Virus genome (UHGV): UHGV-1360762
DNA: 25,018 nucleotides
Direction: 5' to 3' (one strand)
DNA from: a virus
Within the stretch, counting starts at the first letter, position 1; each line of letters begins with the position of its first letter. Positions 9,516 to 13,475 of the stretch are shown piece by piece. Below the pieces are notes generated by a model, which was given only the letters and a program-made list of their open reading frames with translations, did no database searches and had not been told where the DNA came from. Position numbers and translations under genes: made by a program.

Positions 9516-9541
9516 TAAAAAAAGGGGCGAATGCCCCCTTA
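9516..9541 (-). terminator. Rho-independent terminator immediately 3' of the repressor gene
   Basis: AAAAAAAGGGGCGAATGCCCCCTT; on the minus strand GGGGGCATTCGCCCC followed by TTTTTTT. Confidence 0.75.
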
Positions 9542-10189
9542 TGGAAGGTTTGCTAGTTTTGCATCGACAACTACGCCGATGATTTTGCAGTTTCCGTTGA
9601 TCTCGATCATCGGATATTGTGGGTTAAGTGGTTTTAGAAACTTCCTGCCTGCATCAATAACTAACTTCTTGAAAGTTGCCTCGTTTTCTCCTTCGAGCTT
9701 TGCAACTACCAGTTTCCCGTTACGCGGCTCTACTTCAGGATCGACGAGTATTATCATTCCTTCAGGGATACTGAGACCGGCCGGAGCCGTCATTGAGTCT
9801 CCCTTCACGTCCAACCAAAACGAATCTTCTGAACAGTCTACGGTTGTATCGTACCAGTTATCTATTGCACGCTTATGATATGGTTCTACAGCTTCCATCC
9901 AGCATCCTGCGCTCACCCAGCTAATCAGAGGGTATGACCCTCTTGGATCATGCCTACTGTGATAGGCAATGTTTGAAAGACTTTCCTCTCCTTTCATCAG
10001 ATAGTCAGGGGAACACTTCAACGCATTAGCCAGGGCGAGAAGATTCTCTCCATTTGGCTCTGTCTCAGAGCGTTCCCACTGAGATATGGCAACATTAGAC
10101 ACGCCGACCATCTTTCCAAGTGCGGCCTGCCTGATCTTGAGTTCTTTTCTCCGAGCGCGAATGCGCTCTCCCATCAATTGAGTTTTCAT
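9539..10189 (-). CDS. cI: Prophage repressor, P22 C2-type (HTH N-domain, LexA-like autocleavage C-domain)
   Basis: 216-aa protein near-identical to recalled P22 C2 (…TQLMGERIRARRK.LKIRQAALGKMVGVSNVAISQWERSETEPNGENLLAL…). Confidence 0.95.
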   Translation of the reverse strand: MKTQLMGERIRARRKELKIRQAALGKMVGVSNVAISQWERSETEPNGENLLALANALKCSPDYLMKGEESLSNIAYHSRHDPRGSYPLISWVSAGCWMEAVEPYHKRAIDNWYDTTVDCSEDSFWLDVKGDSMTAPAGLSIPEGMIILVDPEVEPRNGKLVVAKLEGENEATFKKLVIDAGRKFLKPLNPQYPMIEINGNCKIIGVVVDAKLANLP

Positions 10190-10269: not shown

Positions 10270-10455
10270 ATGTACAAGAAAGATGTTATCGACCACTTCG
10301 GAACCCAGCGTGCTGTAGCTAAAGCGTTAGGCATTAGCGACGCAGCAGTCTCTCAGTGGAAGGAAGTCATCCCAGAGAAAGACGCCTATCGACTGGAAGT
10401 CGTTACAGCTGGCGCCCTGAAGTATCAAGAAAGCGCTTACCGCAAAGCGGCATAA
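10270..10455 (+). CDS. cro: Cro, P22-type
   Basis: 61-aa MYKKDVIDHFGTQRAVAKALGISDAAVSQWKEVIPEKDAYRLEVVTAGALKYQESAYRKAA matches recalled P22 Cro. Confidence 0.93.
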   Translation: MYKKDVIDHFGTQRAVAKALGISDAAVSQWKEVIPEKDAYRLEVVTAGALKYQESAYRKAA

Positions 10456-10461
10456 GCAAAT

Positions 10462-10507
10462 TGCTCTTTAACAGTCATGGTCCTCATTCCCGCCGAAATG
10501 CGGGAAT
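10462..10507 (+). promoter_or_regulatory. nutR: nutR (boxA TGCTCTTTAACA, boxB TTCCCGCCGAAATGCGGGAA)
   Basis: boxA-like element followed by a boxB stem-loop between cro and cII; same boxA/boxB as nutL. Confidence 0.8.
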
Positions 10508-10512
10508 ACAAC

Positions 10513-10545
10513 GCGCATAAGTTGATGCGCATAACTTCTTATTTG
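10513..10545 (+). terminator. tR1-like terminator hairpin (GCGCAT AAGTTG ATGCGC) with downstream T-rich tract
   Basis: 6-bp perfect stem followed by ATAACTTCTTATTTG, just after nutR and before cII. Confidence 0.55.
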
Positions 10546-10563
10546 TTAAGGAAATACTTACAT

Positions 10564-10857
10564 ATGGTTCGTGCAAACAAACGCAACGAGGCTCTACGAA
10601 TCGAGAGTGCGTTGCTTAACAAAATCGCAATGCTTGGAACTGAGAAGACAGCGGAAGCTGTGGGGGTTGATAAGTCGCAGATCAGCAGGTGGAAGAGGGA
10701 CTGGATTCCAAAGTTCTCAATGCTGCTTGCTGTTCTTGAATGGGGTGTCGTTGACGACGACATGGCTCGCTTGGCACGACAAGTTGCTTCGATTCTCACC
10801 AATAAAAAACGCCCGGCGGCAACCGAGCGTTCTGATCAAATACAAATGGAATTTTAA
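10564..10857 (+). CDS. cII: cII transcriptional activator, lambda-like
   Basis: MVRANKRNEALRIESALLNKIAMLGTEKTAEAVGVDKSQISRWKRDWIPKFSMLLAVLEWGVVDDD... matches recalled lambda cII (97 aa). Track ORF starts earlier, but the ATG at 10564 gives the canonical N-terminus. Confidence 0.93.
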   Translation: MVRANKRNEALRIESALLNKIAMLGTEKTAEAVGVDKSQISRWKRDWIPKFSMLLAVLEWGVVDDDMARLARQVASILTNKKRPAATERSDQIQMEF

Positions 10858-10879
10858 CAACATCCAACGAGGTAATTAT

Positions 10880-11152
10880 ATGCGAAACAAAGGCTTTAAT
10901 CCACCTGATACACACAAAGAAGCTAAGCGTTTGCGCTTCCTTCGTTCCATTGATGAAAGAACTCAAATCTCTTTTGTGAAAGTTGCCAGAACTGAGCTTC
11001 TGAAGGCTGAGGCGAGGGCGTTGCTCCCGTCTCTACCAAAAGAGGAGGGATATACGTTCATTCCAAACGCATTTCTGGAAAAGCTGCTCAAAGAAGACAT
11101 ATCCGTAGGTCAGTTTAACGATGTTCTTAAGGTCTTTCGTCAAGGCAGGTAG
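10880..11152 (+). CDS. Hypothetical protein (90 aa) between cII and the replication initiator
   Basis: ATG at 10880 preceded by GAGGT; in the frame of the long track ORF 10571..11152. No recognised family; lambda has no gene at this position. Confidence 0.5.
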   Translation: MRNKGFNPPDTHKEAKRLRFLRSIDERTQISFVKVARTELLKAEARALLPSLPKEEGYTFIPNAFLEKLLKEDISVGQFNDVLKVFRQGR

Positions 11153-11154
11153 TT

Positions 11155-12102
11155 ATGAGCAATACAGCAAAAATCTACGATTTCAGCGCCGCACACGAGC
11201 GCAGGAGCAACAGGATGGAGAACCAGAAAACTGGTTACATTCCGTTGTACCGGAGCATTCTGAAACAGTCATGGGCGAAAGATGTTTATCTTCGCACCAT
11301 GTGGGAAAACCTTCTCCTGAATGCCGCCAGAAAGCCATACAAAGCGAATTTCAAAGGTAATGAATGGCATCTGCAACCCGGTCAACTGGTTGTGACAGCA
11401 GCTGATTTAGGTCTTCAGTTATGCGACAGACATGGCAAGCCAGCAAGCCGTGATCAGGTTGAGCGGATGCTTCAGGTTTTTGTGAAAGAGGGGATGATCT
11501 CCATTGATGGAGAGAAGCAAAAAGGTCGTGTGATAACAATCACAAATTACCATGAATATGCTCAAAAAATGGACAATTTACCCGCACATGAAGCCGCACA
11601 AACAACCGCACATGATGACGCACATGGCGAAGCCAGTAATGGCGCGGCTTTCAGCGTACATGCCACACATGAAAGCGCACATGAAGCCGCACAAACAACC
11701 GCACATCATGAACAAGAAGGTATTAACAAGAATATAAATAATACCCCCCTACCCCCCAATGGGGGCGGCGATGGGCAGGTTAAACCTGAACGTCGCAAGG
11801 CAGAACGAATCGACTACGAATCCTTCCTGAGCGCCTACAACACCGAAGTCGGTGACAGACTTCCACACGCTGTTGCGGTCAACGAGAAACGCAAACGCCG
11901 CCTGAAGAAAATCATCCCGCAACTGAAAACGCCAAACGTGGACGGTTTCAGGGCGTATGTCAGGGCGTTTGTGCATCAGGCCAAGCCGTTTTACTTCGGA
12001 GACAACGACACGGGCTGGACGGCCGATTTTGATTACCTGCTGAGGGAAGATTCGTTAACGGGAGTTCGGGAAGGGAAGTTTGCAGACAGGGGGATTGCAT
12101 GA
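11155..12102 (+). CDS. O: Replication initiator, O-like (origin-binding)
   Basis: Position after cII; iteron repeats and AT-rich tract inside the coding sequence as in lambda O/ori; followed by a helicase gene with ATGA overlap. Confidence 0.8.
11580..11745. repeat. ori: Replication origin: iterons within the O-like gene plus adjacent AT-rich tract
   Basis: 29-bp direct repeat CACATGAAGCCGCACAAACAACCGCACAT at 11585-11613 and 11678-11706, further GCACATG-type motifs between, then AACAAGAAGGTATTAACAAGAATATAAATAATA. Confidence 0.7.
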
Positions 12103-13475
12103 AACAGGATATCGAAGCGAGCGTTATCGGTGGCCTGCTGATTGGTGGATTAACACCAACTGCCAGTGACGTTCTGGCAACGCTGGAGCCGGAAGCGTTT
12201 TCAATTCCGCTCTACCGGAAAGCCTTCGAGGTTATCCGGAAGCAGGCGAGAAACAGAAACCTAATCGACGCGCTGATGGTTGCCGAGGCGTGCGGAGAGG
12301 AGCATTTCACGTCAATCCTGATGACCAGCAAAAACTGCCCGAGTGCCGCAAACCTGAAGGGATATGCCGGAATGGTCGCGGATAACTATCACCGCCGTCT
12401 GGTGCTGGAAATCATGGATGAAATGCGTGAACCAATTCAGAGCGGAACCATCGATACATCGAGTCAGGCGATGGACGAGCTTGTAAAGCATCTCTCAGCC
12501 ATCAGAAAGCCCCGTGACGAGGTAAAACCTGTACGGTTAGGGGAAATCATTACTGACTACACTGACACGCTTGACAGGCGTCTGAGGAACGGAGAAGAGT
12601 CAGATACCCTGAAGACCGGAATCGAAGAACTTGATGCCATCACCGGAGGGATGAACGCGGAAGACCTGGTGATAATCGCTGCTCGTCCTGGTATGGGGAA
12701 AACCGAACTGGCGCTGAAGATTGCCGAAGGCGTTGCAAGCCGCGTTATTCCTGGTTCTGACGTCCGACGCGGGGTATTGATTTTCTCAATGGAAATGAGC
12801 GCATTGCAGATTGCAGAGCGAAGCATTGCCAACGCCGGGAGGATGTCGGTTAGCGTACTGCGAAATCCTGCATCGATGGATGACGAAGGCTGGGCGCGTG
12901 TTGCTAACGGCATGAGTCAGCTTGCAGATTTGGATGTATGGGTAGTCGATGCCTCGCGGTTATCGGTCGAAGAAATACGCTCAATCGCAGAACGACACAA
13001 ACAGGAAAATCCAAACCTGTCACTCATCATGGCGGATTATCTTGGCCTGATTGAGAAGCCGAAAGCAGACCGCAACGACCTCGCAATTGCTCACATCTCA
13101 GGAAGCCTGAAGGCGATGGCGAAAGACCTGAAAACACCGGTTATTTCCCTGAGTCAGCTTTCACGCGATGTTGAGAAGCGACCAAACAAACGCCCGACAA
13201 ACGCAGATTTGCGTGATTCAGGAAGCATTGAACAGGACGCAGACTCAATCATCATGCTCTATCGGGAAGCTGTATATGACGAGAACAGTAGCGCCGCGCC
13301 ATTTGCTGAAATCATTGTGACGAAAAACCGTTTTGGCTCACTTGGTACGGTTTACCAGCGGTTCTGCAACGGACACTTTGTTGCATGTGACCAGGATGAA
13401 GCCAGACAGATTTGCACAGCATCAAATGCACCTGCTGCGCGTGGCAGACGATATGCACAAGGGGCTGACGTATGA
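12099..13475 (+). CDS. Replicative DNA helicase, DnaB-like (P22 gp12-type)
   Basis: 458-aa protein with Walker [10 protein letters not shown] and DnaB-like C-terminal domain; takes the place of lambda P. Confidence 0.88.

Follow-up and report, generated by a model that had tools for sequence, protein, structure and literature searches.

The window analysed here, the whole 25,018-nucleotide (nt) stretch of UHGV virus genome UHGV-1360762, carries a lambdoid early-right region in which genes for a repressor, P22_Cro, cII, a 90-amino-acid protein, an O-type replication initiator, and a helicase follow each other in this order. All positions are counted from the first letter of the window. As a whole, the window is most closely related to P22-like podophages of Escherichia coli (CUS-3, JEP4, Gally, Kapi1, and HK620). 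The subject of this study is the fourth gene of the series, an open reading frame (ORF90) at positions 10880..11152 of the plus strand. ORF90 is a genuine protein-coding phage gene under selection, and profile comparisons indicate that its core is homologous to the beginning of the lambda O protein; we also call it 'mini-O'.

Upstream of ORF90, a P22 C2-type repressor gene with HTH_3 and Peptidase_S24 domains lies on the minus strand (9539-10189), followed on the plus strand by the P22_Cro gene (10270-10455) and by a lambda-type cII gene encoding 97 amino acids (10564..10857). This cII is ~97 per cent identical to lambda cII at the nucleotide level, the similarity ends at the cII stop codon, and the 3' end of the gene holds the oop terminator on the opposite strand. 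ORF90 itself starts with an ATG at 10880 and ends with a TAG at 11150-11152, and a Shine–Dalgarno sequence, GAGGT (10869..10873, plus strand; read from the sequence), is located 7 nt 5' of the ATG. The purine-rich character of this Shine–Dalgarno sequence is kept in homologues. The product has an isoelectric point (pI) of 9.99, with 18 lysines and arginines versus 12 aspartates and glutamates. The preliminary description of this DNA had singled out a basic 90-amino-acid frame with its own ribosome-binding site between cII and the initiator gene, and each of these particulars holds. Its statement that O directly follows cII in lambda is likewise borne out by the lambda coordinates (cII at 38360-38653 and O from 38686, after 32 nt and with no ORF between them).

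Downstream, the stop codon of ORF90 lies 2 nt 5' of the O start codon (junction TAGTTATG, 11150..11157, plus strand; read from the sequence). The O gene (11155..12102, plus strand) encodes a 315-amino-acid initiator that matches PF04492 (Phage_rep_O) with an E-value of 3e-15 and is assigned to phrog_345. The third gene of the replication module (12099..13475, plus strand) encodes a DnaB-like replicative helicase, as judged from the ORF, from DnaB/DnaB_C Pfam matches on equivalent genes, and from the annotation of CUS-3 and HK97. Inside the O gene, 12-nt periodic CGCACATGA repeats lie at 11583..11711, which are presumably the origin iterons of the replication module; the array, CGCACATGA(A/T)G.., encodes a repeated peptide within O. 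The iterons are confined to this interval; none were found inside ORF90, and the possibility that ORF90 contains O-binding iterons was therefore rejected.

Three parts can be distinguished in the ORF90 protein, all encoded on the plus strand. Residues 1-31 (10880..10972) form a basic N-terminal extension, recognized by the family alignment, by its pI of 10.9, and by a predicted local distance difference test score (pLDDT) of 54-78. Residues 32-51 (VARTELLKAEARALL; 10973..11032) are the conserved part of a predicted long helix (pLDDT of ~89-93 in an AlphaFold2 [AF2] model) and, in a collinearity alignment, are the counterpart of the extreme N-terminus of both the short family members and O proteins. 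Residues 52-88 (LPKEEGYTFIPNAFLEKLLKEDISVGQFNDVLKVFRQ; 11033..11143), identified by Pfam and hhalign, are the O-like segment, which is predicted to form a strand or hairpin and two helices.

Distribution and selection of the ORF90 family

The homologue search proposed in the preliminary description yielded a full-length match and a narrow family of Enterobacterales. ORF90 matches the profile of PHROG 2519 (function unknown) from end to end (residues 1-90 of 90; E-value of 8.1e-57), and its sequence family is thus already catalogued, both under this PHROG and as thousands of "hypothetical protein" entries. The 90 per cent identity cluster to which ORF90 belongs has 500 members, which are named "hypothetical", "uncharacterized", or, occasionally, "replication protein". 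The gene is common: it is present in 279 of 5426 complete E. coli genomes (~5 per cent), always annotated as "hypothetical protein", and a tblastn search of a phage collection found it in fifty-seven records. These comprise forty-eight phages that convert their hosts to Shiga toxin (Stx) 2a production, TL-2011a, Stx2a 981509, CUS-3, JEP4, Kapi1, Gally, HF4s, and two 74 per cent identical contigs. Among the carriers are TL-2011a, which is associated with an O103:H25 outbreak of haemolytic uraemic syndrome, and the K1 phage CUS-3, as well as the enteropathogenic E. coli strain E2348/69. Family members are found in E. coli, Salmonella, Scandinavium, Serratia, Cronobacter, Klebsiella, Providencia, and Proteus; those of the last five genera were added by a profile search, which found no members outside Enterobacterales. 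HMMER, run exhaustively against 1.84 billion representatives, returned only fifteen hits.

ORF90 is intact in all 96 copies of the fetched loci, which represent 27 distinct coding sequences. Synonymous sites are saturated between ORF90 subfamilies, with nonsynonymous divergence (dN) of 0.11-0.56, and, where a value of synonymous divergence (dS) was obtainable, the ratio dN/dS ranges over 0.03-0.34 in the N-terminal and in the C-terminal half alike. The IPN motif and the residues F86, A45, and P53 are invariant. The preliminary description had named a non-expressed remnant in related phages as a finding that would count against it; in intact phages the segment is no such remnant, although broken copies occur in some phage and prophage contigs. 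The broken copies in public assemblies have either a frameshift after residue 51 (a variant found on thirty-six contigs) or deletions that fuse residues 1-51/55 to a helicase or a methylase, and we read them as prophage decay.

The independent disrupted variants (P0020-P0024 and P0030) all break at residues 51-55 (~11030-11050 of the window), where the long helix meets the O-like segment, and their fusion partners are the C-terminus of a DnaB-like helicase and a Dam-like methylase. The window allele has a glycine at codon 77 (position 11108), where almost all other copies have a serine, and the exact window protein is found on only two contigs versus at least 1000 for the common allele.

ORF90 has no match in Pfam at the default threshold or in NCBIfam, none among PADLOC defence-system profiles at E <= 1, and none in a PDB sequence search with either the single protein or the family profile. 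PHROG 2519 has no annotation, and neither the kinship nor the coupling to O is recorded there. Literature searches located no functional study of the ORF90 family, or of orf48 and gp53, the ORFs that occupy the same position in phages P22 and HK97.

Kinship of ORF90 to the N-terminus of O

Residues 52-88 of ORF90 are equivalent to residues 23-59 of lambda O and to positions 6-39 of the 95 positions of PF04492. The Pfam profile was matched at sub-threshold scores by sixteen of the eighteen family members, at positions ~6-39 (best E-value of 5.2e-5). The C-terminal third of ORF90, EEGYTFIPNAFLEKLLKEDISVGQFNDVLKVFRQ, aligns without gaps to residues 25-59 of lambda O, DDGYARLSNMLLEAYSGADLTKRQFKVLLAILRK, when hhalign is run against lambda O alone (E-value of 0.0013). 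When the ORF90 family was compared with an alignment of lambda-type O N-termini, the E-value was 2.4e-5 and the hhalign probability 76 per cent; with a 37-member family alignment, the E-value was 6.2e-5 and the match extended back to residue 1 of O, the probabilities of the two comparisons ranging from 65 to 76 per cent. The real score of 33.3 was reached by none of 200 column-shuffled targets (mean of 10.1 +/- 2.4, maximum of 20.1), and a reversed target scored 11.8. The motifs common to ORF90, lambda O, and PF04492 can be written as (D/E)(D/E)G(Y/F)..(I/L).N..L(E/D)...... D(L/I)...QF..(L/V)L.(I/V)(L/F)R. On these comparisons, the shared segment is homologous to the start of O beyond what composition would give.

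The segment ends early. ORF90 terminates where the O domain would go on into ...TYGWNK and the recognition helix, and a complete winged-helix domain is thus absent, as both the recognition helix and the wing are missing. In contrast to lambda O, ORF90 has only about one-third of the domain and lacks the recognition helix, the wing, the iteron linker, and the helicase-binding C-terminal domain; therefore, it is not an initiator and is not expected to read iterons. A solved structure of the Phage_rep_O domain was not found by sequence. We also considered whether ORF90 and O could be a single frameshifted gene, and rejected this possibility because the O protein has a complete PF04492 domain and a conserved N-terminus of its own.

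The shortest family members, from Proteus, Providencia, and metagenomes, are 59-62 amino acids long and start with MSNV.... Starting at their first methionine, they can be aligned collinearly to the N-terminal ~60 residues of lambda-type O proteins (MTNTAK..., MSNLAT...), and the only indels are one or two residues long. The basic 31-residue N-terminus is present in the 90-residue forms and, in the alignment, absent from members of 59-72 amino acids. At the DNA level, the junction between ORF90 and O (caggtagttATGagcaatacagcaaaaat) is homologous to the junction between cII and O in lambda (caggagtcattATGacaaatacagcaaaaat), and the junction between cII and ORF90 bears the conserved block of pO, the promoter of the oop RNA. 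The Shine–Dalgarno–ATG junction therefore occurs twice, once on each side of ORF90. From these similarities we infer, as the simplest history, that an O gene was partially duplicated at this recombination hot spot, its 5' ~180 nt being copied in tandem, and that the copy then diverged while under selection. The core of the protein (residues ~32-88) would then be derived from codons 1 to ~60 of a lambda-type O gene and would correspond to the N-terminal peptide and, within the winged-helix domain, to the first strand and two helices; the basic 31-residue extension would be a lineage-specific addition.

When positions 11140-11185 of the window are compared with positions 770-820 of the lambda locus (L002), the first ~10 codons of the window O gene are also homologous to the start of lambda O (MTNTAKILNF), despite the different type of the remaining O N-terminal domain; the reverse complement at this place, CATAAC, is a second, degenerate version of the pO -10 hexamer.

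The structure prediction depended on the depth of the alignment. With twelve close sequences, AF2 gave a poor model (pLDDT of 60), and the Foldseek search of PDB with it was uninformative. With eighteen sequences that included distant members, pLDDT rose to 82.7, with a predicted template modelling score of 0.60; this model has a long helix at residues 11-51, a hairpin at 54-59, and helices at 63-71 and 76-86, with pLDDT of ~87-94 over residues 31-90.

Genomic setting: coupling to O, the lambdoid slot, and the oop promoter

In every locus examined, the gene that follows ORF90 is an O-type initiator, separated from it by a gap of 2 nt or overlapping it by 4 or 8 nt. In some automatic gene calls, O begins 62 nt further downstream; the conserved N-terminus MSNTA(K/R)(I/V)YDFSAAH, however, is encoded from +2 onwards. 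The other neighbours are not constant. Eighty-two near-identical ORF90 copies occur with two unrelated cII types (lambda-type and Min27/21-type) and a single cluster of O N-termini (150 amino acids), the immunity regions around them vary freely, and the helicase is mostly DnaB-like but is replaced by a 797-amino-acid protein in TL-2011a and by a Toprim/AAA_25 protein in Providencia. Since cII, immunity, and helicase all vary, the initiator gene is the one invariant partner of ORF90. In two Providencia prophages (L103 3244-4542 and L104 1574-2872), there is no cII; a 78-amino-acid cro-like helix-turn-helix (HTH) gene is followed by a 62-residue mini-O, a lambda-type O that overlaps it by 8 nt, and a Toprim/AAA_25 primase-helicase. 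In Proteus, another small ORF is located between cII and the mini-O gene.

The association is with one half of O. The initiator is modular: its N-terminal ~190 amino acids co-occur with ORF90, and its C-terminal 125 amino acids are common to HK97, ST104, and others. Sixty phage records match the window O at >=80 per cent coverage, and nearly all of them are the same Stx2a-converting and P22-like phages that carry ORF90. The type of the partner's N-terminal domain is not fixed across the family, being mostly GY(I/V)PLYRSIL or GHFALFRSLL and lambda-type in three loci (L097, L102, and L103). We could not find the kinship to the O N-terminus, the invariant coupling to O, or the independence from cII described, and all three appear to be new.

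The preliminary description had regarded a frame at this position as an extra one, with lambda as the reference. This view was not upheld, as an ORF normally fills this slot in lambdoid phages and lambda is the exception: Hayes et al. (2012; PMC3349717) give the layout as cII-oop-'orf'-O-P, from which orf48 is 'naturally missing' in lambda. The position of ORF90 fits this slot, as the gene lies on the pR strand, between the cII/oop terminator and an O-type gene. Hayes et al. (PMC3349717) also described a conserved 33-bp block that takes in the 5' end of oop, the pO promoter, and the initiation codon of the gene that comes next, and the start codon of ORF90 is embedded in such a conserved pO/oop 5' block.

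Several unrelated genes fill the slot in other phages. In P22, HK620, and Min27 it is occupied by orf48, hkaW, and a 47-amino-acid ORF, respectively, all of one family (DUF2740, phrog_1913), and in HK97 and epsilon34 by gp53 and gp49, which form a separate family (phrog_1331); all of these sit between cII/oop and O. Like ORF90, the P22- and HK97-type ORFs have their start codon in the pO block, and their 3' end overlaps or abuts the O start. Unlike them, ORF90 has an O-like segment and twice the length, and there is no sequence similarity. Neither ORF90 nor its relatives matched DUF2740 or phrog_1331 (Pfam at E <= 10; PHROGs), and kinship to the slot ORFs of P22, Min27, HK97, and epsilon34 was rejected, as they belong to different Pfam and PHROG families. 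Min27 shares with the window the spacer, the Shine–Dalgarno sequence, and ATGCGAAA, after which its ORF diverges. On sequence grounds, ORF90 is thus a third, unrelated family of small ORFs in a known slot. The Klebsiella phage ST16-OXA48phi5.2 (L099 1204-2001) has no ORF90; a 265-amino-acid ParB-like HTH protein is encoded between its cII and O, the gene overlaps the O start, and the N-terminal domain of this O is 76 per cent identical to that of the window. Both RefSeq and PHROGs call P22 orf48 (NC_002371 32349-32495; phrog_1913) a 'tail protein', an implausible label for a 48-amino-acid ORF of the early operon between c1 and gene 18.

The overlap of ORF90 with the oop region can be described at the nucleotide level. 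A terminator scan found a 12-bp stem with a T-run on the minus strand (10833->10806), inside the 3' end of cII, and over this region the window and the 3' part of lambda oop have the same sequence. Alignment with the pO/oop region of lambda (CATAAT, 7 nt, G start) places the 5' end of the RNA near G10868, and the predicted oop-like antisense RNA is thus ~66 nt long (10803..10868, minus strand), ends in the terminator hairpin and a U-run, and folds into two predicted hairpins (-21 kcal/mol, z = -3.1). Directly 5' of and at the ORF90 ATG, the plus strand reads AATTATATGCGAAA, the reverse complement of which holds a perfect TATAAT, the predicted pO -10 hexamer (10875..10880, minus strand); A10880 is common to the hexamer and the ATG. 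A candidate weak -35 hexamer, TGGATT (10898..10903, minus strand; three of six matches and a 17-nt spacer, read from the sequence), falls in codons 7-8 of ORF90, and homologues have TGG or TTGG at this place. A consensus promoter scan called neither the pO -35 nor the promoter, nor did the promoter scan call a plus-strand promoter of ORF90's own. A search of positions 10400-11300 against Rfam found no oop family, only a chance snoRNA match (E-value of 0.48). The same arrangement is annotated in the P22 GenBank record, where the oop promoter lies over the start of orf48.

The preliminary description had placed the ORF inside the region where the oop RNA and its promoter are expected. This is right for the promoter, which is predicted to overlap the first ~8 codons, and not for the body of the RNA (10868->10803), which is predicted to lie in the intergenic spacer and the 3' end of cII, outside ORF90. 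The 14-nt block AATTATATGCGAAA is invariant in seven divergent subfamilies and in Min27, where the ORF is a different one. Within it, R2 is encoded by CGA in seven of seven subfamilies, whereas other invariant residues of ORF90 use 2-5 synonymous codons (for example, AGG/CGG/AGA/CGC for R46). The conserved 5' block of ORF90 is, judging by this codon usage, a promoter constraint at the DNA level that is separate from protein function. The start of mini-O in Providencia has no minus-strand TATAAT. Two further candidates were rejected: a second active pO at the ORF90/O junction, where the reverse complement reads CATAAC without the conserved final T, and a terminator-like minus-strand hairpin at 10938->10925, which is weak (5 bp and a poor T-run) and within chance expectation.

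Candidate roles of ORF90

Although the replication module of lambdoid phages is textbook material, no function has been assigned to the small ORFs that lie between oop and O. The preliminary description had offered ORF90 as a regulator of either the lysis-lysogeny decision or replication initiation. The evidence favours the replication side of this proposal, and the gene is most probably part of the replication module and not of the lysis-lysogeny switch. We tentatively interpret it as an accessory protein of replication initiation with a core derived from the O N-terminus, an interpretation to which we give somewhat less than an even chance. ORF90 would be transcribed together with O on the pR early-right transcript and translated from its own Shine–Dalgarno sequence, and the geometry of its stop codon, which abuts the O start, suggests that the two proteins are made together by translational coupling. 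Because the recognition helix and the wing are absent, we propose that the protein would act not by reading DNA but by protein–protein contact at the origin complex, candidate contacts being the initiator O or a partner that recognizes the O N-terminus. In this way it might tune the assembly or the stability of the initiation complex, in either direction.

In lambda, dimers of O bind to the individual iterons by way of their N-terminal regions, and O thereby assembles the O-some (PMC6022878). A free N-terminal element could cap, bridge, or chaperone O assemblies, or compete for a host factor with affinity for the O N-terminus. A more specific version of this idea, which we consider unlikely, is that mini-O is a trans-acting, subunit-like regulator, that is, a stand-alone oligomerization or partner-binding element that sets the timing or extent of theta replication by capping or bridging O dimers on iterons or by competing for the host factor that binds the O N-terminus. 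If it were correct, a by-product would be incompatibility at the level of replication among co-infecting lambdoid phages, including Stx2a-converting carriers. There is a partial analogy in plasmid R6K, where short forms of the pi protein modulate their full-length initiator relatives; these are usually isoforms from internal starts that keep the DNA-binding part. ORF90 may be likened to them as a short initiator relative that is encoded with the initiator and misses part of its functional domains, but it is a separate gene and keeps only the N-terminal, non-recognition part.

Several observations weigh against a role tied to O. The window ORF90 scores only 13.5 bits against PF04492 (E-value of 0.11) and does not reach the gathering score of 28.7, and a pairwise BLASTP comparison of a short member with its own O gives no match; because of the latter, the kinship is remote and visible at the profile level only. 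A full-length O-like parent was found neither by exhaustive HMMER nor by a word-index profile search. The hhalign comparison of ORF90 with the cognate O of the window is negative, and that O has a different N-terminal motif; a resemblance of ORF90 to its own downstream O was therefore rejected, and simple mimicry of its own partner does not hold for the window. Fold searches with the AF2 models gave no informative match. P22 and HK97, which have related O C-termini and DnaB-type helicases, use unrelated slot ORFs, and ORF90 is therefore not a universal requirement. The functional link to O thus draws on guilt by association and on remote homology.

Three other explanations were weighed. A neighbouring cII at a conserved spacing of 19-28 nt, a start that overlaps the predicted oop promoter, and a small, basic product would all suit a lysis-lysogeny regulator that works with cII and oop, by stabilizing or antagonizing CII or by controlling oop expression. 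Near-identical copies of ORF90, however, accompany two unrelated cII families, the family is present in Providencia prophages without cII at that position, and an ORF intervenes between cII and mini-O in Proteus; moreover, the kinship of ORF90 is to an initiator and to no regulator, and its conserved 5' block is explained by promoter DNA rather than by the protein. This is the least probable of the explanations that we considered. It is also quite unlikely that ORF90 is a leader cistron or remnant, the leftover 5' end of a displaced O allele that is kept for pO and for delivering ribosomes to O and whose protein is irrelevant. That scenario would account for the collinearity with the first ~60 residues of O, the duplicated Shine–Dalgarno–ATG junction, the tight coupling to O everywhere, the broken copies, and the fact that unrelated small slot ORFs such as P22 orf48 and HK97 gp53 also overlap the O start. 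It sits poorly with the low dN/dS of both halves at saturated synonymous sites, with the conserved length of ORF90, with the invariant IPN, F86, A45, and P53, with the confident compact fold predicted by AF2, and with the retention of the family in Providencia without a pO-like TATAAT upstream.

A factor in competition between phages is likewise an improbable role. The protein might form mixed oligomers that poison the lambda-type O of co-infecting or resident phages, or it might be a decoy for a host factor that recognizes the O N-terminus; the ClpXP protease, for one, degrades lambda O. The O-like segment is closer to lambda-type O than to the cognate O of the window, the short members start like O N-termini, and the family is found alongside several O types, as such a factor might be. 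On the other hand, a gene that lacks its own promoter and is part of the repressed early-right operon is not expected to yield product from a prophage, no known defence family is matched, and the peptide that resembles the O N-terminus is internal in the 90-residue members and cannot be an N-degron there. The cognate O proteins of Proteus and Providencia are themselves of the lambda type, and a poison would harm its own phage.

Under the favoured interpretation of mini-O as an accessory protein of initiation, a truncated relative of the O N-terminus that is constantly coupled to O and inherited with its origin-specific half is a testable candidate for a regulator or cofactor of initiation. If ORF90 modulates phage replication, it could affect the copy number of Stx phages and, as a consequence, the toxin dose after induction. 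If it is dispensable, it would illustrate cleanly how a new small gene maintained by selection can arise when part of a gene is duplicated at a recombination hot spot.

Two minor observations concern a database record and the DNA upstream of cII. The 2692-bp record OR850084.1 ('Staphylococcus phage SA 1298 Kay') contains an enterobacterial homologue of ORF90 (74 per cent identical) and a homologue of O (62.5 per cent identical); the record is probably mislabelled or a contaminant. Between cro and cII, the window has a hairpin, TTCCCGC-CGAAAT-GCGGGAA, at 10487-10506, which is the expected position of the nutR boxB.

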